A stretch of DNA of 62,534 bases, filler included, from Limisphaerales bacterium (GCA_044225505.1; 9 parts of 9 records of this genome joined end to end with filler, not necessarily neighbours in it); one strand, 5' to 3'; positions 16,441-59,213 are shown, counted from the first letter of the whole stretch. Notes: a model not told the origin generated them from the letters alone. Numbers and translations are program-made.

Positions 16441-16540
16441 NNNNNNNNNNNNNNNNNNNNNNNNNNNNNNNNNNNNNNNNNNNNTTAATTAATTAANNNN
16501 NNNNNNNNNNNNNNNNNNNNNNNNNNNNNNNNNNNNNNNN
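16441..16540. other. Artificial contig linker
   Basis: N44-TTAATTAATTAA-N44. Confidence 0.99.
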
Positions 16541-20418: not shown

Positions 20419-20518
20419 NNNNNNNNNNNNNNNNNNNNNNNNNNNNNNNNNNNNNNNNNNNNTTAATTAATTAANNNNNNNNNNNNNNNNNNNNNNNNNN
20501 NNNNNNNNNNNNNNNNNN
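20419..20518. other. Artificial contig linker
   Basis: N44-TTAATTAATTAA-N44. Confidence 0.99.
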
Positions 20519-24345: not shown

Positions 24346-24445
24346 NNNNNNNNNNNNNNNNNNNNNNNNNNNNNNNNNNNNNNNNNNNNTTAATTAATTA
24401 ANNNNNNNNNNNNNNNNNNNNNNNNNNNNNNNNNNNNNNNNNNNN
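24346..24445. other. Artificial contig linker
   Basis: N44-TTAATTAATTAA-N44. Confidence 0.99.
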
Positions 24446-24893: not shown

Positions 24894-24908
24894 GTGCGGC
24901 ATTTCGGC

Positions 24909-27251: not shown

Positions 27252-28034
27252 ATGAACGCAACGGCTTCCGTCTGCGGCTTTCCTCCGAGCCAACCTGTGC
27301 GGCGAACTCTTTGGCAGGGCGGATTCACTCTGATCGAGCTATTGGTCGTAATCGCCATCATCGCGATATTGGCAGGGATGCTTCTGCCCGCCCTGGCCAA
27401 TGCGAAAGAAAAAGCGACGCGAACTTTCTGCGTTAATAACAACAAGCAGCTGGCGTTGGCCATGCTCATGTATGCCGATGACAATCGCGATTATATGCCG
27501 TGGCCCAACTGGGCCAACGATTACGGGCCTGGATGGCTTTATATGCCCGTGGGCGGCCGCGCTCCTGACCCAGTGAAGACCAACGAGTGGACCTATGTCG
27601 AACGCGGGCTCTACTGGCCTTTCTTGAAGGAACGCAAGGTTTACAATTGCCCGCTCGATCGCACCAATGATGTCTCCTGGCAAAAGCGTTCCCAGCGTGT
27701 CTCGAGCTATGTCATGAATGGCGCTGTCTGCGCGTTTGGTCGTTTCGCCAATGGCAAGACTTACAAGCTGACTCAGTTCAACCCGTCCGCCTATGCCTTT
27801 TGGGAACCCGATATTAAGAAATTCGGCTCCACGTGGGGCGCCAATAGCGGTTTTGATGCCAGCCAATACCCGAGCGAGGAAGAAGGCGTCGGGCGGCGGC
27901 ACAGGAAAGGAGCGGTCATCACCGGGTTTAGTGGACAGGTGCATTTTATCAAGTTCGAGACTTTTCAGACGGAGCAAAAGCAGAATCGTCCAGGCTTACT
28001 TTGGTGTGTGCCGGATACCGCATCCGGCCAATGA
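27252..28034 (+). CDS. Prepilin-type N-terminal cleavage/methylation protein (DUF1559-like)
   Basis: [39 protein letters not shown]; degenerate H-X9-DG ([15 protein letters not shown]). Confidence 0.9.
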
Positions 28035-28107: not shown

Positions 28108-28728
28108 CTACGGGGTGCCGTTCGCTGTGATCGGAGACTGAAAGCTGCTGGCCGGTTCGGCGCGATACGCCGGGTTGGGCCGTGACCAGGCCGGAGCGCG
28201 GATCATCCAGTAAATCCAGAAGATCGCGATCACTCCAGCTACCATCCCAATTCCGACCTTCCGCCCCTGCGACGTCTGCCACCAACGCGCGAATTCCCCA
28301 GATCGCGCGAGTTGAGCCGTTTCCTCGTTGGGCTTTCCCGCGGATTGGGCGTGAGCCCAAACCGTCGACCAGTCGACCGCTTCACACGCTCCAAAGACCA
28401 GTTCGACGTAGAGAGATGGGCATCCCGGCGTCACACAATAGCCTCGGCGCAACCGCATCGTCCCGGCGCGGTTGGGGCAGGGAGGCTCGGACAAAAGGGC
28501 GTTCACCAGCTCTGAACCATCCACGACCGTCCCGCATTGACTGCAGCGCAAGGCGACAGCGCCGCGCAGTAGATTCGGAATCTGTGCGGCCTGCACCCCG
28601 TGTTGGGCCAGGGTGTCTGGCAAGCATCGGTAAGAGTCGCTCAGATTGTAGATCGAGACGGAGGCACGAAACGCCGTTCTTTGGCCTTGTAGGAGATCTT
28701 CGGGGTTGGTGGACATAGGCAAATTCAT
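28108..28728 (-). CDS. Hypothetical protein with CxxC/CxxxxC motifs and a C-terminal TM helix
   Basis: ATGA overlap with the upstream pilin-like gene; CSQC and CVTPGC motifs; [19 protein letters not shown]. Confidence 0.65.
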
Positions 28729-29615
28729 TGCGGTTTGTACCACATCCAGTCTTTCGTCTCTTCATAGGGATAGCGCGGGTCCGTCTGAAGAGCCTCGGAG
28801 AAATTGTGTATTTGCACATGCCCATCGACAAAGAGGACCGGCGAAAAAAACAGCGGTGGTGCCCGTTTGATGTCGCCGATGTCGGATGCCTGCCTGCGGT
28901 AATGCCACTGATACCATTCCACGCTCCCATCCCCGCAGCCATAGACCCGCGCGGGCGGTTCGTGGACCGCGATGAATTTGACCGGATTCGGCACCCAGCC
29001 AGCGTTGTGCCCTCCAAGATCTGCCTGGAATTGCTCGACATTCACCTCGCGGCCGGAGGAAACGAGCTCTCCACTTTGCCATTGCGCCGACGCGCTTAGC
29101 CGCAACCCGCCTCCCGTCAGCGTGGAGAGCGGCCCGCTATTGTAGTGGTAGCTACACCCAACGGTTGCCCAGTTCGACGGCTTTTGATTGGGAGAACGGC
29201 AAGGCAGGATCCGCTGACCCGCATCGCGCGGACAGCGAAAGACCTGGGAATTGCGCACCAGAGGGTAGAGAGGCCGGACTTCCGCTGTGAGGTAAACGTC
29301 CTTGAATGAAGCGGCAGGTTCTTGGCCCCCGAGAACGTAAGTGGTCCATTTCTCGTCGCCATTCTTTTCCCTGGCACGCGGTCCGGGGAAGCGGGCGCGT
29401 GAGTCGTCTTGCTGGTAGAGCTCGAGGCAAACTCCGATCTGTCTCAAGTTGTTCAAGCAGACGGTGGCTTTCGCTCGCTCCTGGGCTCGGCTCAGGGCGG
29501 GCAAGAGCAGCCCGGCCAGAATGCCGATAATGGCGATCACGACGAGGAGTTCGACGAGCGTAAAGGCGTGAAGTCCGAACGGAGGGTTGCCAGCGGGCCT
29601 GGGGTGGCGCGACAT
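28725..29615 (-). CDS. Prepilin-type N-terminal cleavage/methylation protein (DUF1559-like)
   Basis: [48 protein letters not shown]. Confidence 0.9.
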
Positions 29616-29755
29616 ATTGACAGATGTCGCATTAAAAACGACCATTGTCAATATACAAATGGCGCCCACTCCTTGGTCCGCTTGGTCCGCGGCCCTGGAT
29701 TACCGAGGCGCTGAATGCAAGCTTTCCCGTCGCCTGGCGAACGACAAAAGACCGG

Positions 29756-37753: not shown

Positions 37754-39511
37754 TCAGGGTATCTGCTGGACCTGCAATGACCCCAGGTCAAACCAGGCTT
37801 CGCCCTTATTACCGCGCAGTTCACAGATAAACTCCACGTCGGAATCTTCGTTTTCGACAGTGAAATCGTAGACAAATCGTGTCCATGGGCGGCTGCCAAC
37901 CCATTTCCGGGGAGCGTTGCCTTTTGAAACGCGCAAGGCCACGCCTCCGCGAGTGTCGCCTTCGTCAATCGTCACGTTCTCGAGTCGAACTCCTCCTGAA
38001 AACTGATACTGGCCGGGGGAAAGGACGGCGCGAGTGCGCCAGGAACTACTGCTCGTGCCCGCTTCACCTGTTTGGATGTTCAGGCAGTGCACTCCTTGGG
38101 TATCTTTGATTTGGGAAAGCCTTGGTTCGCCTGAACGGACCGTGGCGGGATTCCAGTCCTTCAACGGCAAGGTACCGTCGCGGTTCATGGTGGTGCGAAT
38201 CACCGGAATGCCAAATTGTCGTCGGAGTCCGTTCTCTCGGGCGACGATTCGGCGTTTGAGACTACTCGCCTGGCGCTGCATCAACGAGGCAATTCCAGGA
38301 TGCGATGGCGAGATCTCGGCGGTAACCTCGGACGTGATCTGATCGATGCGAGCGGTCATCCGATCGAGATTGAACACATTGGTGAAAAGTTGGGCTGCCC
38401 GCTCACGGTATCGTCTCTGTCCCTCGCGTGTCGCCAAGATCGCCCGCGCCACGTCGCCCGAGACCTGACCAGGCATAATGGGGGCATTAGGCTGGAATCC
38501 TCGTCCGACCCCGAACAGTTGATCCAAGCCGTGAGGGATAAAGACCATTTTCTTCGCGTCAAGATCGTGGAAGGTGCGCCAGTTGTTTCGATTCATGGTA
38601 TAACCATCCCAGTGCCCAAGCATCACTTCGATGGCCATCATGGAAAGAAAGCGATCCACGTCGAGGACTTGATCGAGGCGCGCAAATGTGGGACGCGGTT
38701 CGGAAAGGGCTGCGAGCAATGCTTGGAGGCCGGAATGATTATTTGGGTTGTCGCCACAATTGACCGACAAGGATCCGTCCACGTCCTGGCAAAAACCACC
38801 GTCGTAAAGGTTGCCTTTCGTGTTGGCGAAGTGGCCTTTCAAGAACTGTTTATTCGCACCTTCGAGCAGGACGTAGAGTCCGAGATCTCGGCCGTTTAAT
38901 TCCACGAGGGCGTGCGCGGCGCGTGGAACGGGAACACCCGCTTGCAGAAACATCTCGCGAGCGAACTTCTCGCAGAGGTAAGAGGGATCCTGCACTGAGT
39001 TATTAAGGGAAATCTTGCGGAGGCCGTGGAAGGTCTGGCCAGGGGCAAACGTGTCGAAGTTTAAGGTCAATGCTGGCCGGTCGTCGATTTGACGAAAGCT
39101 TCCCGCGGCGCCTTTGAGATGAACCGCGACGTTCGTGTAAACCTTGTCTCCTTCGCGAACAATAATCTTCGCGACGGGGCGTTTCTGGCCGTTTCCCCAA
39201 CCGCCCCGATGCAGGATGTTGATTCCGGCTCGAGGGATCTCAAGTTGGATCCGCGGCACGTGCCGATTTGTGAAAAGGTCATCTTGGGCTCCGGCCGGAG
39301 GATGGACGAAATTCGAGGCCGTTTTGGCTGGCGAAGGACGAGAGTCAGAATGTGATGCCGATTCGGTGGTTGAGGCAGGATCTGTAGCGTCAGCCGCAGG
39401 TTCCACGGTATCGGTCGTGGCCTCCGCTTGCCGACTCGACCGACCACAGCCCATTGGGACCATCCAAAGGGCTAGAATCAATACTATCCAAGTGTGGGGA
39501 GCGTTTCTCAT
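37754..39511 (-). CDS. CotH kinase family lipoprotein
   Basis: Lipobox-like PMGC; HLKGAAGSFR; LNNSVQDPSY; HWDGYTMNRNNW; FIPHGLDQ; C-terminal beta-sandwich. Confidence 0.9.
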   Translation of the reverse strand: MRNAPHTWIVLILALWMVPMGCGRSSRQAEATTDTVEPAADATDPASTTESASHSDSRPSPAKTASNFVHPPAGAQDDLFTNRHVPRIQLEIPRAGINILHRGGWGNGQKRPVAKIIVREGDKVYTNVAVHLKGAAGSFRQIDDRPALTLNFDTFAPGQTFHGLRKISLNNSVQDPSYLCEKFAREMFLQAGVPVPRAAHALVELNGRDLGLYVLLEGANKQFLKGHFANTKGNLYDGGFCQDVDGSLSVNCGDNPNNHSGLQALLAALSEPRPTFARLDQVLDVDRFLSMMAIEVMLGHWDGYTMNRNNWRTFHDLDAKKMVFIPHGLDQLFGVGRGFQPNAPIMPGQVSGDVARAILATREGQRRYRERAAQLFTNVFNLDRMTARIDQITSEVTAEISPSHPGIASLMQRQASSLKRRIVARENGLRRQFGIPVIRTTMNRDGTLPLKDWNPATVRSGEPRLSQIKDTQGVHCLNIQTGEAGTSSSSWRTRAVLSPGQYQFSGGVRLENVTIDEGDTRGGVALRVSKGNAPRKWVGSRPWTRFVYDFTVENEDSDVEFICELRGNKGEAWFDLGSLQVQQIP

Positions 39512-40115: not shown

Positions 40116-40616
40116 TCACGGAGTTGCTAGCACGGGAGAGAAATGCTCGTGAACGATTTTCCATGTGCCCTGGTCATAGACCAAGACCAGGGTGCCGCGG
40201 GCATTTTTCGTGACTGAATTGGTGCTGACGTGGAATTGGTACTGCAAAATGAACGTTGCGATTCCGATCTTGCCGAACACGTCGATTTTTTCGTCGACAC
40301 GTTGGGTTGCTAAGCCCTCCACCGCCATCAGAGACCTGTGCTCGTCTTCTCGAGACGCTTCAGCATCGAGTCGGGCGGCCCGTTCCCCAGAAAACTTAGT
40401 GAACTTCGCGTCATAGAGATGGTATTGGTCCAAGCGCGTGAAGTCTTTCTGCGCAGCGGCGGCGAAGACCTCGTCCAGGACCATGTGAATGGCTCGTTCC
40501 GTCGAATTGACAGCGAAAGAGTGGCTGGGATGACGAGTGGAGGCGCATCCAATGGCCAACGCCACGATCCAACCGATGGACAGGAGTTTCAGGTCGGCAA
40601 GCCAGGTTGAGTCCAT
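40116..40616 (-). CDS. NTF2/SnoaL-like lipoprotein
   Basis: LAIGC lipobox; C-terminal GTLVLV...WKIVHEHFS. Confidence 0.8.
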   Translation of the reverse strand: MDSTWLADLKLLSIGWIVALAIGCASTRHPSHSFAVNSTERAIHMVLDEVFAAAAQKDFTRLDQYHLYDAKFTKFSGERAARLDAEASREDEHRSLMAVEGLATQRVDEKIDVFGKIGIATFILQYQFHVSTNSVTKNARGTLVLVYDQGTWKIVHEHFSPVLATP

Positions 40617-40707
40617 AAACTCATTCGGTTTCACAACACGATGCATGGATCGAGCGTGCCTTTCCGCCGGCAACGTGCTGACGGTCATGGCAAGGGCGCT
40701 GATCTGC

Positions 40708-42741
40708 TCACACTCCCGCTGGGCCAGCGAACGATAAGGCTTCTTCGAGCCAATCGTCCACTCGCAAAACAGCTTTACGTTGATTGAAAGCCACCCGTTG
40801 CGCTTTCCGTTGAGCCAAAGCAAACGCGGCCTCGCCGATTTTTTGTCGCCCAGGGACGGTGGAGGCGAGAGCGCGGGGCAGGTTGCGGGCCATGGGCTTC
40901 GCCAAGTATCGCCGGATCAGTTCGTCCTCCGCGCTGACGAACGCTTGCGCTGAACCGGGGTCTCCTTGCCTGGCGCTACGGCCAAAGAGCTGCCGGTCCA
41001 CGCGGCCGGATTCGTGGCGTTCTGTGGCAATGACGTGCAGACCGCCGAGTTCAACGACCCCTGGAGGAAGCTTAATGTCTGTGCCGCGCCCGGCCATATT
41101 GGTTGCAATAGTGATCTGAGAGGCATAGCCGGCGTTGGCGATGATAGCCGCTTCTTCCTGGTGGCGAACGGCGTTAAGCAGCCGGAAGTAGAGACCGCGT
41201 TCGGTCAACAGGTTGGCAAGTTTTTCACTGGCGGCGACGCTGCGCGTGCCAATGAGCAACGGACGTCCCGTCGCATTCAATCGTTGAATTTCATCGGCGA
41301 CAGCTTTCCATTTGTCAGATTCGTTAGCGAAAAGGCGATCTGGCCATTGCGTTCGGATGCAGGGCTTGTTCGTGGGGATCCGGATTACGGGAAGCCGGTA
41401 AATATGCCAAAACTCCCCGGCTGCTTCCCGGGCGGTGCCAGTCATTCCGGAAAGGTTGTGGTAGAGCCGGAAGAAGCGTTGAAAGCTAAGGCGCGCGATG
41501 GTTTCAGCCGGGTCGGTGACCGGGACCTTTTCTTTTGCTTCGATGGCCTGATGCATGCCTTGTCGCCAAGAACGTTGCGGCATGGGGCGGCCGGTAAATT
41601 CGTCGACAATGACGATTTTGCCTTCCGTCACGACATATTGCTTGCCCATCTGGTAGAACTCTCGCGCGAGCAAGGCTTGTTGGACCAACTCTGTGCGACG
41701 ATCGTTTCCTCGCCAAATGCCACTAAGCGAGGCGCACCGGGAAGTGAGCTTTTGGCGGCCCGCCTTCGTGAGTTCGACCTCGCGGTAGCGGTGATTGACT
41801 TCGTAGTCCACCTGCGGTTCGAAAGGCTCGATGATTTCCTGGGCGACTTGAACGACCTGGCGAAGCTCTTCGTTCTTTTGCTGTGTCGAAATGATGAGCG
41901 GGGTTACGGCTTCATCGATCAAAACGCTGTCGGCTTCATCGACGATCGCGGTATAAAGACCGCGGAGGACAAGCGGATCATCGGCCGTTGGCGACGGTGC
42001 GAGGAGGCGGCGAATGAGGCGGCGTGAGGGATCCTTAAGTTCGCCGACCCGCAATCGATCTCTCAGGAAATCGGCTAACACCTCTTTACTGGTGACATAA
42101 GTGACATCGGCTGCATAGCCCTGACGACGAGCGGAATGGTCCATCGCCGCAGTCACAAAACCGACGCGCACGCCGGCGAAGCTATAGAGTGGCCGCAACC
42201 ATTCCGCATCACGTTGCACGAGGTAATCGTTGACCGTGATGATGTGGCAAGGGCGGCGCGTCCAACCAGCTAGCGTGGCGGCAAGTCCCGCCGTAAGAGT
42301 CTTGCCTTCGCCCGTGGCCATTTCCGCGAGATACCCGCGGTGCAGAGCCAAAGCGCCCATGAGTTGGACAACAAACGGATGCAATCCGAGTTTGCGATGG
42401 GCAGTTTCGCGGATCGCCGCCAGAGCATGGGCCAAAACGTCGTCTTGTTTCCGGCCGCCGCGGCGGAATCCGTCCCGATAGAGCAAGAGGCGCTCCTGCA
42501 AGTGGTGATCGGACAACTCGCGAAAGTCGGACTCCAGAGCATCCACGCCTTCGGCTTCCTGACGCAAGGAAGCAAGGACCTGACGCCGCCGCCGAAAGAC
42601 GCCGGTGAGAGCGTGCACCCCTGCGTCCAGGCCTTTCAGCAGTTTCTCTGGCGCATGATGATGGGTTCGGCGGTATTCCTGGGTTGGAGTAATCAAAGCT
42701 GGTAGCGCTTTTGCAGCAGTTGCCGCAGGCGTCGAATCCAT
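40708..42741 (-). CDS. Accessory, C-terminally truncated SecA paralog
   Basis: EMATGEGKT, TVNDYL, IVDEADSVLIDEA, DEFTGR, GMTGTA, ATNMAGRGTDI and QLFGRSARQGDPG; ends at 677 aa without wing domain or C-tail. Confidence 0.92.
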   Translation of the reverse strand: MDSTPAATAAKALPALITPTQEYRRTHHHAPEKLLKGLDAGVHALTGVFRRRRQVLASLRQEAEGVDALESDFRELSDHHLQERLLLYRDGFRRGGRKQDDVLAHALAAIRETAHRKLGLHPFVVQLMGALALHRGYLAEMATGEGKTLTAGLAATLAGWTRRPCHIITVNDYLVQRDAEWLRPLYSFAGVRVGFVTAAMDHSARRQGYAADVTYVTSKEVLADFLRDRLRVGELKDPSRRLIRRLLAPSPTADDPLVLRGLYTAIVDEADSVLIDEAVTPLIISTQQKNEELRQVVQVAQEIIEPFEPQVDYEVNHRYREVELTKAGRQKLTSRCASLSGIWRGNDRRTELVQQALLAREFYQMGKQYVVTEGKIVIVDEFTGRPMPQRSWRQGMHQAIEAKEKVPVTDPAETIARLSFQRFFRLYHNLSGMTGTAREAAGEFWHIYRLPVIRIPTNKPCIRTQWPDRLFANESDKWKAVADEIQRLNATGRPLLIGTRSVAASEKLANLLTERGLYFRLLNAVRHQEEAAIIANAGYASQITIATNMAGRGTDIKLPPGVVELGGLHVIATERHESGRVDRQLFGRSARQGDPGSAQAFVSAEDELIRRYLAKPMARNLPRALASTVPGRQKIGEAAFALAQRKAQRVAFNQRKAVLRVDDWLEEALSFAGPAGV

Positions 42742-44849
42742 CGCGGAAGCAGCGGTTCGGAAGGAAGATCCACGCGGAGCTTGCCCGCCCGTCCGTGCAA
42801 CAGCGCGGCATTCTGCGCATCCATGACGCCGGCTCGGACCTCAAAGAAAGGTTCTGCCGTTCGAACACCTTGAGGATCATCGTGGGCTACTCGAACTTCA
42901 CCACCGGCATTCCAGCCCAGGGCGGGCGATGGCAGACGATTCTGTTCTGTGGGCACAATAGTGAGCTGACCGAGTGTAAGAGTGCGATCGGACTGTCCAA
43001 AGAGGCGCGCTTGCGATCGGAGAACCTTGCTGGCGAACAAGCTGTCGCCGTCCTCTTGCGCCACCGTGGCTGTAAACTCAAAGCCATTAGGGTCAATGAT
43101 CAATCCCAGGGAGGTGCCGCGGACAAGCCAGCGTCCCAATGATTCTTTAATTTGTGGGGCAACCCAAAGGCCGTCCTGACGGGCTTGAATCGTCAAGGAG
43201 GCACGATCCCGCTCGAGACGTTCCAATCGCTTCTCGACAGAGGTCAAACGGCTTAGCAACGGTTTCAAACTGGCGGGGTCATCGCGGCGCGCTTGCTGCA
43301 AGCGCGCCTGCACTTCCGCGAGGCTGGCCAGGGCGGCGGATCGTTCGAATTCCAACGGGTCATTCTTCAATTGGAGAAGGACTTGCCCACGTGTCACGCG
43401 CGTTCCCGGTGCGGCGACCAGCCGGTCCACGCGGCCCGCCGATTCATTCACGACTTCGGTCCATTGCTGAGACTTCAGAACGCCTGGAGCCCGGAAATGG
43501 TTGGGAAAAGGTATCAGGTTTAGGAGAACCAGCAAGACCGCGGTAACCGCGGCGCAGACCGAAATGGCCCTGAGTCGTTGACGTTCGAGGGACGGACTAG
43601 ACGCAAGGTACTTGACGAGCGAGACGGTTGGAACCATCACCCAAGAGATCAAGCAAACGGCGGCCATTATAATTCCGATCAGCAAGAATCGATCGGCGAC
43701 AAAAAGGAGGATGCCGCTGAAAACGATGATCCGGTAGACGTTGCTCGAGAGGCCGTAGACCGTCAGCCAAGTCTTCTCTCGACGCGATGTCGTTGGACTC
43801 TCGGACTTGCGGACGCCAAAGAGGTAGCGCTCGGCCAAGTGTTTGAGGTGGTTCAGCGATTTCTGGTAGAGATTTGGGATTTCCAACAGATCGGACAGAA
43901 TGTAATACCCGTCGTAGCGGAGCAGGGGATTGATGTTAAACACCACGGTCGAAACCGAAGCCACGAACATCATGTTGTAAGCGAGACTATGAATCGTGCC
44001 TGGGCCGGAATTTGCCCAGACGAAGGTCGCTAAAGCGGCTAGGAACAGCTCGACGATCATTCCCGCAGCACCGACCAGGACTCGCTGCCAACGATTGCGA
44101 AATCCCCAACTCGAGGTAGCGTCCACATAGGGCATGGGGGTGAAAATCATGAGCATGATTCCCATCACATGCACTTCACCGCCGAAACGCCGGCAGAAAT
44201 AGGCATGCCCAAATTCGTGCACGGTCTTCACTAGAACCATTCCCGCGTAAAGAAGAACAAGGTTGTTCGGTGCGAGGACGCCTTGGCTCTGCTCTTGGAG
44301 GAGGCTCCAGTGGTCAATGACCATCTTGATCGCAGTGCCGACTACCCCGAGCCAAAGAAGGGCTCCCAATGGACTGATCAGGGCGCGAGCCAGCGGCAGA
44401 GTCCGAACCAGAAACTGGTCGGGGTCTAGCAGCGGAAACCGCATGAACATGACGTTCAGAAGCTTGGCGCGGGTTTCGCGTTGCCGGGTCCGTTCGTAGC
44501 GCTTGAAAAGCTGCGCGGTATCATTGCCCGCGTCGTAATGGAGCAGGTTAGCAAAATAGAGCTGCGAGAGCAGCTGTAACACTGACTCCTGGCCGGGAGC
44601 TTCGTCGGGAAAACGGTTGAGGCATTCCTGCCAAACTTCTTGCACGGTACGATCGCGGCGCAGCCGGGCGACAAACTCGTAAGCGGCTGGTCGAAGCCGG
44701 AAGAACTGATTGCTGAACGGGTTTTGAAGCACGAACCACCGTTGGCCACGAAAGTTCTGGCGCTGCACGATGACGTCTGGGCGAAGCGAAAGCTTCTGCC
44801 CGGCGATCCGGTACCAGGATTCACTAAAGGTTTGCGGCGCGTTCGTCAT
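42693..44849 (-). CDS. PqqD-like + M50 site-2 peptidase + HlyD/MFP fusion protein
   Basis: N-terminal PqqD-like fold; HEFGH and NINPLLRYDG; multiple TM helices; lipoyl-hairpin-barrel C-terminus. Confidence 0.88.
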   Translation of the reverse strand: MTNAPQTFSESWYRIAGQKLSLRPDVIVQRQNFRGQRWFVLQNPFSNQFFRLRPAAYEFVARLRRDRTVQEVWQECLNRFPDEAPGQESVLQLLSQLYFANLLHYDAGNDTAQLFKRYERTRQRETRAKLLNVMFMRFPLLDPDQFLVRTLPLARALISPLGALLWLGVVGTAIKMVIDHWSLLQEQSQGVLAPNNLVLLYAGMVLVKTVHEFGHAYFCRRFGGEVHVMGIMLMIFTPMPYVDATSSWGFRNRWQRVLVGAAGMIVELFLAALATFVWANSGPGTIHSLAYNMMFVASVSTVVFNINPLLRYDGYYILSDLLEIPNLYQKSLNHLKHLAERYLFGVRKSESPTTSRREKTWLTVYGLSSNVYRIIVFSGILLFVADRFLLIGIIMAAVCLISWVMVPTVSLVKYLASSPSLERQRLRAISVCAAVTAVLLVLLNLIPFPNHFRAPGVLKSQQWTEVVNESAGRVDRLVAAPGTRVTRGQVLLQLKNDPLEFERSAALASLAEVQARLQQARRDDPASLKPLLSRLTSVEKRLERLERDRASLTIQARQDGLWVAPQIKESLGRWLVRGTSLGLIIDPNGFEFTATVAQEDGDSLFASKVLRSQARLFGQSDRTLTLGQLTIVPTEQNRLPSPALGWNAGGEVRVAHDDPQGVRTAEPFFEVRAGVMDAQNAALLHGRAGKLRVDLPSEPLLPRWIRRLRQLLQKRYQL

Positions 44850-44853
44850 GAGC

Positions 44854-46749
44854 TCACCACCAGAGCCACAAGCGCAGGAAGTCCACCGTGCGGTGGGTTA
44901 GGATCCACAGTAACGTGCGCTTTTCTACGTTCAGTTTGCAGACACCGCTCATTCCCGGCCGCCACCAAAGCTGGAACGGACCTGTAAAGGCAGCGCGAAC
45001 AGTAAAGACGTTCTTCCCTTCCTTGGCGAGAGCGGCTGGTTCGATGCGGACGACGTGAATCGGAAACTTCAACTTCGGTTGAGCGACAAACGCAACTTCA
45101 CCTTCGGTGCGATTGAGTATCTCGTGCATATCGCGCTCCCCGATCTCCACTTCCACGTACTGAGTATCAATGCGTGCGACTTTGAATAGGGCCTCGCCTT
45201 GCTTAACAGGTGCGCCAACTCGCTGCCTTAAGTCTCCCTCGACGAGGACGCCGTCGAAAGGTGCCTTCAACTGCGCTTGACCGAGGCGGTAGCGAGCCAA
45301 AGCGAGCCGCGCTTGCGCCTGATCCGCCAAGGCTAAAGAAATCTTCATGTCTGCGAGGGAGGGTGGCTTGGCGCTCCGCACGTTTTCGGCTTCGGCGCGC
45401 GCTTTCTCGGCCTCGCGGGTGAACCGATTGAGGTCTGCGGCGGCGGCGGCTTCCTCCAATTCCAGATCCGCTGTGTCCAAGCTCAACATGGTGGTGTTGG
45501 TGGTGACGGGATCGCCCGGACGAACGGGAACACTGCGGATGTAGCCGTCGAACGGCGCGGTGAGGAACGAGACCTCATCGCTGCGCACGATGAAGTTCCC
45601 TTCCACTCGGTAAGTGAAAATCGGCAGCAGCAAGATCACCAGCAGGACCACGATGAGCAAGGCCAGGACTTTAGCCCAGGTATGCTCTGGTCCGACGAGT
45701 TTAGAGAGCTGCGTTTTGGCGGCGCTAGTCCAACGTGCGCCGAACCAACGGTCGTTGGCTTTGAGATCGGCCAGCCTCCGGGCCGCCTGATCGCACGCCA
45801 AGCGCAGTTGGCGCAGCTCGATCTCGGAGAAAGCTTGCGTCTGCCGTTCACAGGTCAAGACACCAATGGCCTTTTCGTCGAGCCGAACGGGCAATGAGCA
45901 AAGGTGGCCAGTCGAATAGTTCGTAGCGAAGCTGGCGTGATCTTTGGTGATGAGGGAAGCGTGTTCTGGGGATGGGTAGACCACTTCTTCATCCTGATCA
46001 AAGGCTTCTTCCATCGCGACTTCTAAGGCCTTTGACGCGGCCATCGTGCGGTCAAATCGTTCGGTCCGGCTGATCGTTTGAAGGCGGATGTAGCCATGTT
46101 CAATCCAACCAAGGCTTACGCGATCGCAACCGAAGCGGTTGGCCAGACCGTTGCAGAAGGCGAGCGACGCCGCGTAAAACCGGGTCTCCGCATTCACCAC
46201 AACCATAACGTCCAGAACCGACGCGAACTTCTCCACGTCTGTCTTGGCTTGCAGGACGGTTTGATTCAGCCGGTAAGTGCTTGGCGTGTCGGCCGCCAGC
46301 GCTAGACGAGCGAGAGCTTCGCGAGCTTGTTCGTCCGTAACATTCAGCAACAAGAACGCGGCAATGCACGTTTCATTTCCGGAAGGGAGCGGAATTGTCT
46401 GAGCGAGCGCGAAGTGCTTGGTGCCAGAACTGGGACCGTTTTCGATGGCCTGAAGGAACTGCTGCTGTTCCGCACATTTCTGAGCAATTTCCGGCGCAAG
46501 GCGCGTGAAGGTCACCACGGCGCGGTCAGCATGTCCGTTAGATGACCAGTCCGTGAGTTTCTTGAGTCTATCAGGTTGCGCTGGGTCGCGCAGGATTAGC
46601 AGGCCGCGGCATGCGCCAATGAGTTGACCAGCGGCAGCCATAAAGGCCGGCCAGAATTGGGCGGGAGGGCCCGAGAACCGACGCAACCGCCCGAGCTCTT
46701 CTAAGGCGTTCCGAAGTTGGGGATCGTCCTTACTTTCGTGCGCTAGCAT
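44854..46749 (-). CDS. GAF-domain HlyD-family membrane fusion protein
   Basis: CDRVSLGW...AMEEAFDQD...CSLPVR...IGVLTCER (GAF-like); TM; TAPFDGYI...KAPFDG...WWRPGMSG. Confidence 0.88.
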   Translation of the reverse strand: MLAHESKDDPQLRNALEELGRLRRFSGPPAQFWPAFMAAAGQLIGACRGLLILRDPAQPDRLKKLTDWSSNGHADRAVVTFTRLAPEIAQKCAEQQQFLQAIENGPSSGTKHFALAQTIPLPSGNETCIAAFLLLNVTDEQAREALARLALAADTPSTYRLNQTVLQAKTDVEKFASVLDVMVVVNAETRFYAASLAFCNGLANRFGCDRVSLGWIEHGYIRLQTISRTERFDRTMAASKALEVAMEEAFDQDEEVVYPSPEHASLITKDHASFATNYSTGHLCSLPVRLDEKAIGVLTCERQTQAFSEIELRQLRLACDQAARRLADLKANDRWFGARWTSAAKTQLSKLVGPEHTWAKVLALLIVVLLVILLLPIFTYRVEGNFIVRSDEVSFLTAPFDGYIRSVPVRPGDPVTTNTTMLSLDTADLELEEAAAAADLNRFTREAEKARAEAENVRSAKPPSLADMKISLALADQAQARLALARYRLGQAQLKAPFDGVLVEGDLRQRVGAPVKQGEALFKVARIDTQYVEVEIGERDMHEILNRTEGEVAFVAQPKLKFPIHVVRIEPAALAKEGKNVFTVRAAFTGPFQLWWRPGMSGVCKLNVEKRTLLWILTHRTVDFLRLWLWW

Positions 46750-47509
46750 TCGAGGATTCCTCAAAACTCATTTTTCCGGCCACGCCCGGCCGGACTTTGC
46801 CGTCGGCGTTTTCAAAGAGGACTTTGACTTTCATCAACCCGCTGGCGGCATCGACTACCGGCGAGACAAAGCTGATCGTTCCAGGGGCTATCACCGACGT
46901 AGGGCTGGACTCGATCTCTAAATCGACCCTGGTTCCTACGCGGAGCGACTGACCTGCCTTGGCTTCAACGTTGCAGATAAAATAACAACGGCGCGTGTCA
47001 ACCAGTCGCAAGACCGGTTGCTGGAGTTGGCAAGATTCGCCGATTTGCAGATAGATTTCGGTGATGAACCCATCAAATGGCGCTTGGATCGCGCGTTTCC
47101 GAACTTGTTCTTTCGCGAGCTCGTATTCCGCCAGGGCAACTTTGTAGTCTGCTTGCTTCTTTTCCAAGAGTTCTTTACTGACAGACGATTTGGGCTGCTC
47201 GAACAAGTACTTGCTAGCTTCAAAATCCGTTCGCAGAGGTTCTAACACCACCTCGCGTCGAGCGACTTCAAGATCTTCTAGTGTTTTGTCCAATTCGACC
47301 AACACGTCGCCTTTCTTGACGAAATCTCCCTCGACGAATTTTCGAGCGGAAATGATGCCGGCCACAGGGGTGCCTAGAGTCGAGTCTAAAATCGGTTCTG
47401 TAAGGCCCACCACAGAGATCGTCGGAGCGGCCTTAGTTGCCGAGCCGAAGGACGCGATAGAGACCATGGCTGCTAGCCAGAGCCGCCTAAGTAATAAGAC
47501 GCATTTCAT
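46730..47509 (-). CDS. RND-type periplasmic adaptor (MFP)
   Basis: Signal peptide; EGDFVKKGDVLVEL; IQAPFDG; SPVVDAASG; VRPG. Confidence 0.9.
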   Translation of the reverse strand: MKCVLLLRRLWLAAMVSIASFGSATKAAPTISVVGLTEPILDSTLGTPVAGIISARKFVEGDFVKKGDVLVELDKTLEDLEVARREVVLEPLRTDFEASKYLFEQPKSSVSKELLEKKQADYKVALAEYELAKEQVRKRAIQAPFDGFITEIYLQIGESCQLQQPVLRLVDTRRCYFICNVEAKAGQSLRVGTRVDLEIESSPTSVIAPGTISFVSPVVDAASGLMKVKVLFENADGKVRPGVAGKMSFEESSNASARK

Positions 47510-47537
47510 GGATCAATGAGGTCTTGCCGTCGATCGG

Positions 47538-49475
47538 TCAAGGGCGAGGTGGGTTTTTCGGCGCGACGTTCTCGTTCGGTTCGCGCATTTTCTCGCGCAG
47601 TAGTTCAATCGCCCGACGGTGCGCTGCCGGGTCGGCTTGTCCATCGGGAACAGCTGAGGAGGAACTGGCTCCTGGCGTAGGCGGATTGGATTCGAGTTGT
47701 TGAATTTGCTGTCGAAGCGTATCCACCGCTTTACGTTGCGCCTCAACTTCTTGGTCTGTCATCTCGCGGTGCAGGCGATCCAAAGCCTTGCGCTGGGTGA
47801 GGCTGTTTGGACTCAGGTCTTCGTAATACTGTTTGGCAGCGTCCCGAGAATACTTCTCCAGAGCTTGGTCTGAAAGCCGATCTTTCAGAAAGGCAGCCGT
47901 CTTAGCCTGCAACTGGGGCTTGGTCACATCGAGGTCACGGACCAAGAGGGTGGAACCGGTAACCAATTCCATTTCCAAGAAAGCCTTTTGATACTGAATG
48001 AGGTTTTCCAGTGCCGCGATGCGAGCTTCGAACAGCTTTTCCTCGGTTTCGAGAACGGTGCGACTATCAATCCGACCGACTTTGAGACGCTCCATTTGGC
48101 TATCGAGGAGTTGCTGGTGAAAATTGACAACGGCCTCATAACTCTGAACGTTCTCGAGATAGCTTCGAGTTTTATACATGGCCGACTCCAACGCGTTGCC
48201 AATTTGGAGTTCAATCTCCTTCAAACCCAGAAGTGCGCGTTGCTGTCCGAGCTTGGCGGCTTCAAACTCGTTGCGTTCTCGAATACCGCCGGTCACGGGG
48301 ACGCGCATTTCGACTCCGACACTCCAGGTGGGGAAATCGTAATGACCGACGTCATCCCACGCGTCACCTGGGGACTGACCAAGCCCATTGAAGCCATAGT
48401 TGGCTTTCAAATCGAGTTGTGGTCGGCGTTGATTTCGGGCGTAGCCCAGCCGGATTGTCTCCTGGTTAACCTGCGTTTTACGGGAAAGATAATCCGGGTT
48501 GAGTTGAAAGGCTTGTTGGTAACTTTCGAAATACGTCAGCGGCAACTCGCGGATCGCTGGGCGGTCAACGACCCGCAAGCTAGCGTTGGTCGCCAAGGTC
48601 GGCTCCGACAGCAGGGTTGCTAGCTGACTGACTCCCTCAAAACGTTTTGTTCCCGCCTCGCTCCGCCTGGCCTTGCGGAGCGAGAGTCCAGCTTCGGATT
48701 GGAGAACTTCCAGTTCGGATGAGCGGCCCACTTTGGCCCGGTTCTGATTGTCGGTCAGAATTGCTTCGGCAATCGTGATGCTCTCTGACGCAATTCGCTC
48801 TTGTTCTTGAGTCAAATACAGATCCCAGTAGGCTGACTCGGATCGAGCGACCAAGAGCATCAGTTGGCGGCGATAATCCTGGAAGGCGAGATCAGACGCG
48901 GCGGCGGCGAGGCGAATGCGCACGGTAGTGGCATCAATACCGAAGTTTTTCAAGAGGGGTTGCACCAGGCTGACTCCGACAAAGGTTTCATACTCGTGAT
49001 GGATATTGGTTCCGCCCGTGCTTAAGATTGACCCCTGGCGCTGCAGATTATTTTGGAGATCTCGAAACGAAACGCCTAGTTTAAAGCGAGACCCGATCGG
49101 AGATAGGAACTCGAGGCCGCCGTTATAGAGGGTGTTGCGCTCATCGAGTTCGGCCGTGAGCAGCGAGCGAGCTTGCTGCACATTGTTCGGGCGTTGATTA
49201 TCAACACGATCGATATCCGCGACGATCGCGGGCTCGAAAATGCCCTTTTCTGCCTTCAGCGTTTTCTGACTAATCTCCGCCTCCAACATTTTCATCTGAA
49301 TACTCTCGTTATTCTCGACGATGCGCCGCACGACCTCGGTAAGCCGAATCTCGCGGCCGGGCGGTTGATTAGTGGCAGCCGACAAACGAAAGGGAGCGAG
49401 GACGCAAAGGAGCAGAACAAAGCATAAGGCTATGCGGCGAGGACAACTGTCAACCGAGACAACAACGGATAACAT
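47538..49475 (-). CDS. TolC family outer membrane protein with C-terminal coiled-coil extension
   Basis: Signal peptide; VQPLLKNFG; AYWDL; RRPQLDLKANYG; two OEP repeats; start uncertain. Confidence 0.9.
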   Translation of the reverse strand: MLSVVVSVDSCPRRIALCFVLLLCVLAPFRLSAATNQPPGREIRLTEVVRRIVENNESIQMKMLEAEISQKTLKAEKGIFEPAIVADIDRVDNQRPNNVQQARSLLTAELDERNTLYNGGLEFLSPIGSRFKLGVSFRDLQNNLQRQGSILSTGGTNIHHEYETFVGVSLVQPLLKNFGIDATTVRIRLAAAASDLAFQDYRRQLMLLVARSESAYWDLYLTQEQERIASESITIAEAILTDNQNRAKVGRSSELEVLQSEAGLSLRKARRSEAGTKRFEGVSQLATLLSEPTLATNASLRVVDRPAIRELPLTYFESYQQAFQLNPDYLSRKTQVNQETIRLGYARNQRRPQLDLKANYGFNGLGQSPGDAWDDVGHYDFPTWSVGVEMRVPVTGGIRERNEFEAAKLGQQRALLGLKEIELQIGNALESAMYKTRSYLENVQSYEAVVNFHQQLLDSQMERLKVGRIDSRTVLETEEKLFEARIAALENLIQYQKAFLEMELVTGSTLLVRDLDVTKPQLQAKTAAFLKDRLSDQALEKYSRDAAKQYYEDLSPNSLTQRKALDRLHREMTDQEVEAQRKAVDTLRQQIQQLESNPPTPGASSSSAVPDGQADPAAHRRAIELLREKMREPNENVAPKNPPRP

Positions 49476-49816: not shown

Positions 49817-51223
49817 TCAGTCGGGCTGAACGGATCGCGCCGGGGCGGTTTTGGCAGGCCACAACAGCACGAGGAGAGTGCAGATCGCTGCGTTAACGTG
49901 CAAAACCCCCTCGGTTGCCAAACGTTGAGCCGTGAAACTGACCAAGGCTCGTTCCAGGTTGCCCACGATCATCCACCAGAGGAAGATTAAATATAGGAGC
50001 TGGCCGCGGCCCAGCGAACTTTCGGATATTACGTCGAGTCGCGAGCGAGTGTGGCGTACAAGAAGTGCCAGAACCATCAGAGCCAACAGGGCGTAAGCTA
50101 TGTTGAACCAAGCCTCGGCGGATAGTGAATAAAGGACTGCGGGCATACTCTTTGCCGCAACCCATACGGGCGGATTCTTGCTCAAGTTGACGTAGGTGAT
50201 CACGAGCAGGACAAACGCGACCGAGTATATCCGGGTTGCCCGGGTGAGGGACGGTTCGGTGGTAAGTTGGCGCTCGCGCTGGGACACCAAGAGTAAAGCG
50301 ACGCCAAGTCCGACGCCATTGATGAATCCGTAGGTCTGCTCCAAGATGCTATGCCAGTTTGCGGTCCAGCCGCTTTTGACTTCGACCAACTTCAGCATGG
50401 TGGCGGTGGCAAAGCCGAATCCACCAATAAAGCCGGTGACTAAGGAAGCTAGTGCGACCGAAGTCCAGCGTTGCCGACGCAGAAAAGCAATCAATCCGAG
50501 CACCATCCCTAAACAACCCGCCCAGTTATCGCCGCGAGGTGGAGTCATTCGCCAGTCAAGTAGGACAACGAGTCCCAGGAAACAAAGCCACCAGCCGACG
50601 GCCAGGTGCAGGATCAGCGAGCTGGCTAGATCCACCCGGCGCCGAATTGCCGCCAAACCCAACACCGCCACCGGGGCAGTCAGGGCGGCTAGCCAGTCGG
50701 TATCGAACCAGTAAAGGGGGCTGGCGTGGCGGAATTGACCATCAGGGCGCTCAATCCAGCCGACCACAACGTCTTGCAGGATCCAAGCGGCAAATACCGT
50801 GGTCACTGGGGCCAAGAACGCATGCAATTCGTCGCGGGAGAGCTGTGCTGGGAGAGCTGCGCCTGCGCCGCCGAGGGCTCCCCAAAGGGCGCCGATACAA
50901 AACAGGCACGTAAATCCATAAAGGACAGAGGGTGAATGTCCTGAGTGAGTGTACGCGATCACTTGCATATAGGACATGCTCCCTCCGAAAGACCAGCCCA
51001 ACGCCCCTAGAAACCCAAAGCAGCTGACTCGCGGCCACCAATCGCGTCGCCCGGACAATAAGACGGCTCCCATCGTCGCGAGCGCTCCGGGAATCATCGC
51101 TCCGTACTCGTGGCCAAAGTTACCACGAATCCCCCAGCCGATGGAGAGCGACAGTGCAGTCACCAGAATCAGCTGAGCAGCTCTAATTCGGTCTGTTGTC
51201 ATAACGGTGATGGAATCCATCAC
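49817..51223 (-). CDS. Conserved multi-pass membrane protein of unknown function
   Basis: About 12 TM segments; GWGIRGNFGHEYGA, FGGSMSY, RGDNWAG and NWHSILEQ conserved-looking motifs. Confidence 0.8.
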   Translation of the reverse strand: MMDSITVMTTDRIRAAQLILVTALSLSIGWGIRGNFGHEYGAMIPGALATMGAVLLSGRRDWWPRVSCFGFLGALGWSFGGSMSYMQVIAYTHSGHSPSVLYGFTCLFCIGALWGALGGAGAALPAQLSRDELHAFLAPVTTVFAAWILQDVVVGWIERPDGQFRHASPLYWFDTDWLAALTAPVAVLGLAAIRRRVDLASSLILHLAVGWWLCFLGLVVLLDWRMTPPRGDNWAGCLGMVLGLIAFLRRQRWTSVALASLVTGFIGGFGFATATMLKLVEVKSGWTANWHSILEQTYGFINGVGLGVALLLVSQRERQLTTEPSLTRATRIYSVAFVLLVITYVNLSKNPPVWVAAKSMPAVLYSLSAEAWFNIAYALLALMVLALLVRHTRSRLDVISESSLGRGQLLYLIFLWWMIVGNLERALVSFTAQRLATEGVLHVNAAICTLLVLLWPAKTAPARSVQPD

Positions 51224-52952: not shown

Positions 52953-54212
52953 TTAACCGAAAGAAATACGGGGCAAGAGTGGGATTCTTGCTTGGACTCG
53001 AACGATGGCAAAGAACAATTCAAGTCGCCAGCGGAGTGCCCATCCTCCGTCCAATTCTCCAGCGAGGACGGCTGTGACCGCGGCCGGCAAATCGAGCCGA
53101 TGGCGGGGCTCGAGAAAGACCTCCATAAAAGGAGTCGTGTAAAAACCTTCTACCATTCGCCAATAAAGTTTCATGCCGCGATACAGACGTTTTTCATACG
53201 CTCGGAGGGCGGTGCTGCCGTCATTTCCCTTAGCGAGCGAGTCAATGATTAAGTTGGCAGCGAGTTTCCCAGAGTGCATTGCCAGGAAGACGCCCGCGGA
53301 GAAGATTGGGTCCATAAACCCCGCAGCGTCTCCCACACGGATTAAACGCGGTCCCACTAGCCGCTCGTTCGTATAAGAAAAGTCGCTCGTAGTTTGGATC
53401 GGGCCGAGAGCGACGGCCTTTTCCATGCGTGCTTGCAGGGTAGGGCTCCCGCGCCACAGTTGTTTGAACAGTTCAGCTGGTTTTTCGTCGGCGTTGGCAA
53501 AGTCGCCCTGATCCAGGACGCAACCGACGCTCACCTTCTCAGGCGACAAGGGGATAACCCAGAACCATTTGTTGTCCAGTCGTACGATAACGGTATCTCC
53601 CGATGCAGGCCCCGAGTCGAGGCGCACACCCGAGAAATGTCCAAACACCGCCACCTTCTTGTGTCGAGGATGGATGCGTCGCAGGCTTTGCTGATTCCCT
53701 GTAAGGTTCGATCGTCCAGTCGCATCGACGAGAAACCGACCTTGAAACAACTGCCGCGAGCCGCTCGGTCCAGAAGCTTCCGCCTCAACTGAGGAAGCCT
53801 CGTTTGTGGTCCGACCTACCGTCCAACCTTCGCGGACTTCAGCACCTGATTTCGCGGCGTGTTTTAGCAGTAAATGGTCGAACGTGGATCGCTCGACCTG
53901 GAAGGCGATGGGCTCGTGAGTAAAGCGGCCATTTCGGAAAACGAGAGAGAGGGCTTTGCTGCCATTGCCCAAGTGAAACTGGGCGCCCTGCTTAACCGTG
54001 AACCCGGCGGCTGCAAGATCGCTGAGTACTCCCATCTCCTCAAAGATCCGCCGATTGTAAGGCAACAGGGACTCACCAATATGGAACCGCGGGAATAACT
54101 CCTTTTCCAATAGCAGGACCTTTTTGCCCGCGCGTGCTAAGAATGTCGCGGCCGACGTGCCGCCCGGGCCACCTCCAATGATGATGGCGTCATACACAGT
54201 AGAACTCTGCAT
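52953..54212 (-). CDS. FAD-dependent oxidoreductase of flavin-dependent halogenase type
   Basis: GGGPGG; FPRFHIGESLLP; VKQGA; WFWVIP; GDAAGFMDPIFSAG. Confidence 0.85.
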   Translation of the reverse strand: MQSSTVYDAIIIGGGPGGTSAATFLARAGKKVLLLEKELFPRFHIGESLLPYNRRIFEEMGVLSDLAAAGFTVKQGAQFHLGNGSKALSLVFRNGRFTHEPIAFQVERSTFDHLLLKHAAKSGAEVREGWTVGRTTNEASSVEAEASGPSGSRQLFQGRFLVDATGRSNLTGNQQSLRRIHPRHKKVAVFGHFSGVRLDSGPASGDTVIVRLDNKWFWVIPLSPEKVSVGCVLDQGDFANADEKPAELFKQLWRGSPTLQARMEKAVALGPIQTTSDFSYTNERLVGPRLIRVGDAAGFMDPIFSAGVFLAMHSGKLAANLIIDSLAKGNDGSTALRAYEKRLYRGMKLYWRMVEGFYTTPFMEVFLEPRHRLDLPAAVTAVLAGELDGGWALRWRLELFFAIVRVQARIPLLPRISFG

Positions 54213-55580: not shown

Positions 55581-55680
55581 NNNNNNNNNNNNNNNNNNNN
55601 NNNNNNNNNNNNNNNNNNNNNNNNTTAATTAATTAANNNNNNNNNNNNNNNNNNNNNNNNNNNNNNNNNNNNNNNNNNNN
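55581..55680. other. Artificial contig linker
   Basis: N44-TTAATTAATTAA-N44. Confidence 0.99.
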
Positions 55681-59113: not shown

Positions 59114-59213
59114 NNNNNNNNNNNNNNNNNNNNNNNNNNNNNNNNNNNNNNNNNNNNTTAATTAATTAANNNNNNNNNNNNNNNNNNNNNNNNNNNNNNN
59201 NNNNNNNNNNNNN
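59114..59213. other. Artificial contig linker
   Basis: N44-TTAATTAATTAA-N44. Confidence 0.99.

Follow-up and report, generated by a model that had tools for sequence, protein, structure and literature searches.

Introduction

Type I secretion is presumed to export unfolded chains across both membranes in one step, and its RTX proteins and giant adhesins are very large, repeat-rich and cysteine-poor, some of them with calcium-binding repeats. Here we describe a locus that shares with type I systems (e.g. HlyB-HlyD-TolC and LapBCE) a TolC-family channel and HlyD-type adaptors. It occupies positions 40708-49475 of a 62,534-nucleotide stretch of DNA, filler included (the window), from a Limisphaerales bacterium (GCA_044225505.1). 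Its five genes encode a TolC-family outer-membrane factor, a small periplasmic adaptor (membrane fusion protein, MFP), an adaptor with tandem GAF domains, a truncated paralog of SecA and a fusion protein. The fusion joins a putative RiPP recognition element (RRE; RiPP, ribosomally synthesised and post-translationally modified peptide) to an M50 site-2-type metalloprotease and an adaptor. Whereas type I secretion has an ATP-binding cassette (ABC) transporter and an uncleaved C-terminal signal, this locus has no ABC gene, a SecA-type ATPase and a candidate signal in the form of an N-terminal leader; it also has three different adaptors, two of them with predicted cytoplasmic domains. Our results indicate that the five genes probably encode an envelope-spanning export and processing machine for proteins with an N-terminal LEPR-XLL leader.

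Peptidase-containing ABC transporters (PCATs) are ABC exporters fused to a C39 cysteine protease, and they act on peptides with double-glycine leaders. The likeness to the present locus is leader recognition and cleavage within the export machine at the cytoplasmic face, whereas here a putative RRE and an M50 metalloprotease are fused to an adaptor and the motor would be a separate SecA paralog. Gram-positive bacteria use SecA2 or SecA2-SecY2, i.e. a second SecA, for a few special, sometimes very large, surface proteins. SecA2 proteins keep their C-terminal domains and use SecYEG or SecY2; in contrast, the paralog described here scores under the cut-offs of the SecA2 models, its genome has one SecY, and its partners are M50, MFP and TolC proteins.

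In Omnitrophota and Actinobacteriota, giant proteins embed SecA_DEAD and preprotein-binding domains without scaffold or wing (bioRxiv 10.1101/2023.11.21.568195). What is shared with our locus is a wingless SecA module tied to giant-protein export; in the preprint's account the module lies within the giant and has type II secretion-like neighbours, whereas here it is a free-standing protein of 677 aa in a TolC-linked operon. MpaP, from daptide biosynthesis, consists of an N-terminal RRE and an intramembrane site-2 protease, and removes leaders with ELExMEAP (bioRxiv 10.1101/2023.03.08.531785). The fusion resembles it in its N-terminal RRE-M50 arrangement with HExxH and Asp motif, and the leaders share, close to their N-terminus, an acidic L-E-x-hydrophobic-E-(x)-P pattern (ELExMEAP versus LExLEPR). 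As described in that preprint, MpaP has no periplasmic adaptor domain and handles short modified peptides; the fusion scores below the MpaP cut-off and so is no equivalog.

The closest description is that of Kamneva, Poudel and Ward (2015; PLoS One, PMC4452313), who reported the same gene set in silico from phyla including Verrucomicrobia. Their locus has a secondary SecA_DEAD protein without wing and scaffold, together with Peptidase_M50/HlyD, GAF/HlyD and HlyD proteins, sometimes an OEP protein, and no ABC gene. In their hypothesis the ATPase activity comes from SecA and the membrane pore is formed by the M50 protein; they called the biological role completely unknown. Among the carriers named in that paper is Methylobacterium extorquens AM1 (META1p2399-2402). 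All of these features recur here: a second SecA_DEAD protein, loss of wing and scaffold, M50/HlyD, GAF/HlyD and HlyD neighbours, and no ABC gene. A preliminary description of the window had mentioned a report of secondary SecA_DEAD genes beside type I-like genes, and its interpretation is essentially the 2015 hypothesis. A term search of the main text of the paper returned no PqqD or RRE domain and no giant or large protein, and in its sections 16-17 neither cargo nor leader is named. Nor does that main text report a SecA-less sister system; the present analysis adds such a system, predicts the RRE and tandem-GAF folds and links the locus to leader-bearing candidate cargo. We found no follow-up study and no experiments on the Kamneva locus in the literature, and no published link between LEPR-XLL proteins and the SecA_DEAD/M50 locus in a search that stopped short of preprint supplementary tables.

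A preprint on the Chlorochromatium consortium describes an LEPRxLL tag on two giant proteins that are transferred between the partners and, according to its text, carry no known transport signals; a sapC gene stands before an LEPRxLL giant (bioRxiv 10.64898/2026.03.19.712371). The supplementary trees of Kamneva et al. (PMC4452313) list the species of that preprint among the carriers of the secondary SecA and its partners, so an organism with cargo-export data may already exist.

Results

A conserved five-gene cassette

The five genes run head to tail on the minus strand in the order TolC, small adaptor, tandem-GAF adaptor, fusion and SecA paralog (Table 1). Taken in that order, neighbouring genes are separated by 28 nt, overlap by 35 nt, are separated by 4 nt and overlap by 49 nt. 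The window consists of short contigs chained by runs of N (4215-4314, 8305-8404, 12382-12481, 16441-16540, 20419-20518, 24346-24445, 55581-55680 and 59114-59213), across which neighbourhood is meaningless. The locus lies entirely inside a single real contig of 31,135 bases (window positions 24446-55580, G000:C182) of a fragmented assembly (342 contigs, 95% complete). Scans of open reading frames (ORFs) with Pfam bore out the five co-directional genes of the preliminary description, with their domains and coordinates, and also its three adaptors without an ABC or resistance-nodulation-division (RND) pump: there were 0 matches to ABC or RND families among the 21 ORFs scanned on the contig. A promoter and terminator scan gave fewer sites than in shuffled sequence.

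A scan of one genome per species yielded 80 related loci, which we extracted with 10-kb flanks. They span Verrucomicrobiota, Planctomycetota, Desulfobacterota, Alpha-, Beta- and Gammaproteobacteria and Nitrospirota, and also come from Spirochaetota, Fibrobacter, Flavobacteriales, Myxococcota and others. Of the 69 loci long enough to hold a SecA paralog, 65 have one directly after the fusion gene, and a gene with a GAF-type N-terminal domain precedes the fusion gene in 59 of 65, i.e. the synteny that the preliminary description had expected is conserved. The small adaptor and TolC are upstream, downstream or undetected (41 and 26 of the 80 loci at the threshold used). Of the 940 ORFs in the 80 loci and the contig of the window, only 1 has ABC motifs; it encodes an ABC_tran protein and lies on the opposite strand in locus L022. 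The objection that an ABC transporter might be a constant member of homologous loci therefore fails. The five-gene arrangement is no product of chance. As a separate observation, a SapC-family protein (PF07277, E ~1e-72) is encoded in 9 of the 80 loci, in proteobacterial cassettes (e.g. L060:9072-9941 and L052:3783-4553); SapC and DUF3467 were not found in the window's own genome (95% complete).

Co-occurrence with LEPR-XLL proteins

In many of the related loci a very large ORF adjoins the cassette, mostly cut by the 10-kb flank. Ten of the 12 large neighbours with a visible N-terminus match NF012209 (LEPR-XLL, a 24-residue domain) above cut-off, the two others being an HrpA helicase and an ORF of 2,106 aa. 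A strict leader pattern was present in 15 of 81 loci (the 80 related loci and the window's contig) and in 0 reversed sequences. In many genomes the tagged ORF begins ~2.2 kb past the fusion gene, i.e. right behind the SecA paralog; open frames in this position measure 11,066, 10,789, 10,591 and 18,984 aa, and in the complete chromosome of Vreelandella aquamarina (L055, G301:C1:1418719 onward) an LEPR-XLL frame of 20,892 aa directly follows the paralog. Some neighbouring cargo ORFs have RTX-type calcium-binding repeats. V. aquamarina, with one machine and one cargo gene, is a possible model organism. In two other genomes (G303, Nitrospirota, L079; G302, Phycisphaerales, L029) LEPR-XLL heads frames of just 225-628 aa, so the leader is not confined to giant proteins.

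The scores of the fusion profile are bimodal, and genomes were classed as strong (best E <=1e-180), weak-only (1e-33 to 1e-139) or without a match. In 301 genomes of the Verrucomicrobiota phylum, LEPR-XLL was found in 23 of 25 strong, 1 of 43 weak-only and 4 of 233 remaining genomes; in 351 Pseudomonadota genomes the corresponding counts were 32 of 36, 14 of 47 and 2 of 268. Together the non-strong genomes account for 5/276 (Verrucomicrobiota) and 16/315 (Pseudomonadota). These counts are descriptive, no test statistic being attached, and overstate independence because the sampled genomes are mutually related. The strong carriers among Verrucomicrobiota fall into 22 genera, with an LEPR-XLL match in every genus, and the five matches outside the strong group lie in frames of 38-636 aa, with E-values no better than 9.6e-4. 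Co-occurrence with giant proteins that lack a signal peptide, a possibility raised in the preliminary description, was thus found in both phylum samples and in the window's own genome.

That genome has one machine and eight NF012209 places above cut-off, none of them on the window's contig; the tagged ORFs sit on other contigs, and the earlier remark that this contig carries no giant substrate was correct. Of six tagged frames, four measure 1,461, 1,451, 2,776 and 12,706 aa; the other two, of 2,006 and 4,939 aa, are truncated at contig ends. Their leader lies ~5-20 residues past the start codon and reads F-x-L-E-x-L-E-x-R-x-L-L-S-A. Cysteines number 0 in 12,699, 0 in 4,939, 0 in 1,991, 0 in 1,451, 2 in 2,763 and 6 in 1,436 residues, against a background of 0.92% cysteine in long ORFs of the same genome. 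The 12,706-aa ORF (G000:C311:76882-114999, minus strand, outside the window) has CARDB, Big_5, beta-helix, PA14, RHS-repeat (many), Big_13 and dockerin matches, and the 2,776-aa ORF has beta-helix/NosD matches. A second LEPR leader occurs 2.4 kb upstream of the 12,706-aa ORF, in a frame broken by assembly N. Most likely, the machine of this genome serves at least six large-to-giant, nearly cysteine-free ORFs of 1,451-12,706 aa, with the leader consensus F-x-L-E-x-L-E-P-R-x-L-L-S-A-D. More generally, the sequence evidence makes a strong case for LEPR-XLL proteins as the cargo.

A SecA-less sister system and its leaders

The weak fusion matches represent a related family, which we followed in 11 loci from 11 genomes (within L092-L103). 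In these sister loci the fusion is accompanied by TolC and two adaptors, one small (~275 aa) and one of intermediate size (440-494 aa) that has no GAF domain. A tblastn search found no SecA paralog at any of the 11 loci, and Pfam found no ABC_tran among 40 neighbour ORFs at eight of them. Searched over their whole length, five sister-only genomes each gave just one SecA_DEAD match. Next to the sister fusions of Pseudomonadota lie ORFs of 2,400-7,200 aa that are poor in cysteine and match LEPR in part.

We compared 15 leaders from sister-only genomes with 25 from strong-type genomes, using higher-scoring rows only. Strong-type leaders read F-x-[LVI]-E-[AP]-L-E-P-R-x-L-L-S-[AG]-[DET], and 23 of the 25 have Ser at +7 (the 25 include one mis-hit of the pattern); sister leaders read [LM]-x-A-L-E-P-R-x-[LM]-[LF]-D-[AG]-A and have Asp at +7 in 14 of 14 (one sister locus gave no match). 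The leader subtype therefore tracks the machine subtype, as would be expected if the machine reads the leader. The existence of a sister core without SecA or GAF makes the SecA and GAF domains look, at the level of sequence, like additions to an M50-based core, with no exchange for an ABC transporter. The earlier proposal that SecA replaces the ABC ATPase fares badly here, as the sister family, with the same core, has neither a SecA paralog nor an ABC gene nearby.

The SecA paralog and canonical SecA

The SecA paralog matches Pfam SecA_DEAD (322 bits), SecA_PP_bind and P-loop_SecA, with no SecA_SW match. It aligns with residues 11-608 of B. subtilis SecA and with residues 1-751 of the 1026-aa canonical SecA of its own genome; because the alignments end there, little of the scaffold helix is left in the paralog, and the wing domain, two-helix finger and zinc-binding C-tail are absent, in line with the early stop in the scaffold helix noted in the preliminary description. 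It retains nucleotide-binding domain (NBD) 1, the preprotein cross-linking domain, NBD2 and the first part of the scaffold helix. Compared with canonical SecA, its N-terminus is extended by 44 residues and its NBD1 contains an insert of 19 residues. The canonical protein (ORF of 1026 aa, open frame of 1036 aa, with a C-terminal Cys-rich tail) is encoded on a different contig. With two SecA_DEAD places and a separate full-length secA in the genome, the objection that the locus might hold the only secA fails. All SecA and SecA2 equivalog models score the paralog under their cut-offs (for the SecA2 models, TIGR03714 487 against 930, TIGR04221 434 against 725, TIGR04397 553 against 1085 and NF012136 402 against 1100), and the genome, 95% complete, has a single SecY match and no second SecY.

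The 49 paralogs from related loci are all short (643-759 aa), and their Walker A motif, DEAD-like box and arginine-finger region are at least 95% conserved. Each of five strong-type genomes has a canonical SecA plus one or two short paralogs, every one adjoining a strong fusion, so that the number of paralogs equals the number of strong fusions.

These data bear on an alternative in which a core of M50 protein, adaptors and TolC recognises and clips the cargo and carries out the outer steps of export unaided, with proton-motive force or extracellular folding of the cargo as the energy source. The SecA paralog would then be no translocation motor but an accessory that holds or unfolds very long nascent cargo or targets it to the membrane. 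The sister systems are what this alternative would lead one to expect, as they combine the same core and a related leader with no SecA paralog or ABC gene (11/11 loci; 40 neighbour ORFs), and the five sister-only genomes have their single SecA_DEAD match. Moreover, the RTX-type repeats of some cargo could act as a ratchet by folding outside the cell, and the paralog is without the two-helix finger, which contacts the channel in canonical SecA. However, strong conservation of the ATPase motifs and of the preprotein-binding domain in 49 paralogs, translational coupling of the paralog to the fusion gene, and the presence of its own paralog beside each strong fusion all speak for a more central role. 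We therefore regard autonomous export by the core as rather unlikely, and favour a five-gene machine in which the SecA paralog takes part in export.

Predicted domains of the fusion protein

The fusion family is very large and uniform in length (4,526 clusters at 50% identity, E < 1e-30, with most of the 150 best ~718 aa long). Residues H211, E212, H215, N305, N307, P308 and D313 are invariant across 45 diverse members, and because the zinc-site residues are among them the M50 protease is expected to be active. In the predicted structure (pLDDT 87.2), searched with VIA-align, residues 448-701 resemble the periplasmic adaptors MexA, MacA, EmrA and ZneB (Z ~14), and residues 195-390 resemble the site-2 protease RseP (9j83_A; Z 9.1, 164 residues aligned, rmsd 4.2). 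Residues 18-105 resemble two proteins whose structures include the leader peptide, namely 6jx3_B, a lasso peptide synthetase B1 (Z 9.0, rmsd 2.9, 83/85 aligned), and 5v1u_A, which is TbiB1 (Z 8.9, 82/84 aligned). The model thus points to a RiPP leader-binding (RRE) fold for the N-terminal domain, and the fusion is predicted to be the inner-membrane core of the machine. Pfam PqqD matches 13 of 45 family members (best E 3.4e-8). A search of PDB sequences with the family profile returned only adaptors, biotinyl-lipoyl domains and a weak site-2 protease match, with no RRE, and Foldseek on the whole model returned adaptors only; the RRE and RseP matches came solely from the wide VIA-align search.

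Among curated families the fusion matches best the daptide intramembrane metalloprotease model NF041824 (184 bits, where the cut-off is 300; E 4.4e-54 across residues 21-407), and YydH/LiaK (NF058609) scores 35 against 225. By analogy with these RRE-dependent RiPP leader peptidases, to which it is homologous, the M50 domain may act as a leader peptidase. The same matches could be read in another way, i.e. as a RiPP-type machine in which the RRE-M50 fusion matures or exports a small leader peptide (compare MpaP, YydH and EpeP) and the giant neighbours are coincidental. The RRE-fold N-terminal domain would fit such a machine, as would EpeP, which one review mentions as thought both to cleave and to export its peptide. 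A RiPP-type small-peptide exporter was indeed our initial reading, and it was dropped when the neighbouring giant ORFs were found to share a leader. All-against-all clustering of the 80 loci gave no conserved small-ORF family and no modification-enzyme family among ORFs of >=60 aa, and neither short precursor genes nor modification enzymes were found on the window's contig. The conserved partner is instead a leader on proteins of hundreds to ~20,000 aa, and a TolC with three adaptors would be unusual for small peptides of the RiPP type. Such a machine is thus very improbable, and export of LEPR-XLL proteins remains our preferred function.

The outer-membrane factor and the small and GAF adaptors

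The locus contains both type I-like parts, an HlyD-type membrane fusion protein and a TolC-family outer-membrane factor. The TolC ORF is open to 49724, and the Met at 49475 begins a signal-peptide-like stretch (translation and hydropathy). The protein matches Pfam OEP in two stretches (121 bits), scores 84 bits with TIGR01844 (under the cut-off of 225) and has a coiled-coil-like C-terminal extension of ~120 aa. The small adaptor scores 149.9 bits with TIGR01730 (RND_mfp), over the cut-off of 94.9, and its N-terminus has a hydrophobic signal-like segment by hydropathy.

The GAF adaptor consists of a GAF-GAF part (residues ~14-349), one transmembrane helix (366-384) and an MFP domain (382-614), and Pfam GAF matched 20 of 20 members of its family. 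In its predicted structure (pLDDT 85.7), again searched with VIA-align, residues 174-339 match 3trc_A (Z 17.1), residues 14-349 resemble the tandem GAF domains of PDE5A (3mf0_A, Z 16.4), PDE2A (16.4) and CyaB2 (13.4), and residues 382-614 resemble EmrA (Z 15.7). The model predicts a cytoplasmic GAF-GAF part and a periplasmic MFP part, and the tandem GAF suggests gating by a small ligand.

Some of these features would also suit a locus that exports no protein at all and instead either signals by regulated intramembrane proteolysis, with the GAF domains as its sensor, or expels small molecules and happens to include a SecA-like ATPase. M50 proteases classically signal, GAF domains are sensors, and the adaptors look like MacA, MexA and EmrA, which belong to drug pumps. 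However, the 80-locus clustering gave no sigma/anti-sigma pair conserved with the locus, the SecA paralog keeps its preprotein-binding domain, and the tight link to leader-tagged proteins would be left unexplained. We consider signalling or efflux most improbable, and retain protein export as the likely function of the locus.

Coordinates and neighbouring genes

Table 1. Features of the putative export locus (window positions).
Feature	Position	Strand	Size and basis
TolC-family outer-membrane factor	47538..49475	-	645 aa from Met at 49475; Pfam OEP
Small periplasmic adaptor (MFP)	46730..47509	-	259 aa; HlyD_3, HlyD_D23
Tandem-GAF adaptor	44854..46764	-	636 aa; Pfam GAF and HlyD
RRE (PqqD-like)/M50 site-2-type metalloprotease/MFP fusion	42693..44849	-	718 aa; Pfam Peptidase_M50, PqqD, HlyD_3
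Predicted RRE-fold domain of fusion, residues 18-105	44535..44798	-	VIA-align on predicted model
HEFGH zinc-binding motif, M50 domain, residues 211-215	44205..44219	-	Translation and conservation
Second M50 motif N-x-N-P-L-L-R-Y-D-G, residues 305-314, third zinc ligand Asp	43908..43937	-	Conservation
Truncated SecA paralog	40708..42741	-	677 aa; Pfam SecA_DEAD, SecA_PP_bind, P-loop_SecA
Walker A motif GEGKT of SecA paralog, residues 144-148	42298..42312	-	Translation and conservation

Directly upstream of TolC, a 468-aa polytopic membrane protein (49817-51223, minus strand) has no Pfam or NCBIfam match. On the other side, a SnoaL-like ORF (40116-40823, minus strand) with one hydrophobic segment would, from its TTG start, overlap the 3' end of the SecA paralog gene by 116 nt; its real start is probably later. 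The contig also encodes two CotH kinase-like proteins (37754-39511, minus strand; 24894-27188, plus strand), the second of which has N-terminal matches to sigma-70 region 2 and region 4, an unusual combination. The 468-aa membrane protein, SnoaL-like and CotH genes are not kept beside the cassette in the 80 related loci and were therefore not counted as parts of it. Further along the same contig are a tryptophan-halogenase-like FAD enzyme (52953-54212, minus strand) and two proteins with an N-terminal methylation (type IV pilin-like) motif (27252-28034, plus strand; 28725-29669, minus strand), one of them a DUF1559 protein.

Discussion

The scheme that we propose starts from what was observed directly, namely gene content, folds, catalytic motifs, synteny, co-occurrence, adjacency and the co-variation of leader and system. 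Every physical interaction in it, as well as leader cleavage, the direction of transport and energy coupling, is what we infer. The cytoplasmic RRE domain of the M50 fusion would dock the leader. The truncated SecA paralog would grip the unfolded chain in its preprotein-binding domain and, driven by ATP, feed it from N- to C-terminus into an inner-membrane assembly in which the membrane domain of the M50 protein is joined by the GAF adaptor's membrane anchor, possibly during translation. At the cytoplasmic face the M50 active site would cut off the leader. A periplasmic duct to the TolC channel would be formed by the three adaptors, which each contain a helical pair of the alpha-hairpin type, and the tandem GAF would serve as a cytoplasmic ligand-sensing gate. 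As the signal is N-terminal, export could start during translation, which is attractive for proteins of 10,000-20,000 residues.

Several observations weigh against this scheme. The sister system operates without a dedicated ATPase, and the SecA paralog may therefore not be the basic translocation motor; in addition, the paralog is missing from 4 of the 69 related loci with room for it (L018, L027, L034 and L059). We know of no M50 protease that acts as a protein-conducting channel. The RRE match, with Z ~9, is middling, yet the whole target chain was covered each time; the PqqD and MpaP scores of the fusion are under the curated cut-offs. As for the cargo, 6 of 61 strong-tier genomes have no LEPR-XLL match, the relatedness of the sampled genomes inflates the counts, and with no cargo gene on the locus contig the link in the window's own genome rests on co-occurrence.

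The observation made in the preliminary description is confirmed, and the gene set itself has been known in silico since 2015. The interpretation given there is partly supported and the mechanism is inferred. Of the distinct trans-envelope machine envisaged in the preliminary description, the synteny, the separate SecA and the intact M50 site uphold a dedicated, ABC-less, TolC-linked system, whereas replacement of the ABC ATPase by SecA is, as worded there, not supported. New here are the two phylum-wide three-way counts, the lack of a second SecA in the sister-only genomes examined, and the co-variation of the leader.

Judged by its genes, the locus appears to work like a leader-guided, TolC-linked exporter outside all characterised families. 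Whether it amounts to a separate class of Gram-negative secretion is, in our estimation, an even call. Such a class would be marked by an LEPR leader read by an RRE, a site-2-type protease on a TolC-docking adaptor, and a wingless SecA that threads the chain from N to C, possibly co-translationally, under GAF control. Its cargo would be cysteine-free giants of up to ~20,000 residues, it would have an older SecA-less sister with a variant leader, and it would provide a route for orphan LEPR-XLL giants, including those of the Chlorochromatium consortium.

Some of the largest proteins predicted in bacteria belong to the LEPR-XLL group. A machine devoted to them, together with a leader that it can read, would account for the exit of these giants from the cell and, if our proposal is true, a SecA-type motor and an intramembrane protease would join the parts list of TolC-linked systems.

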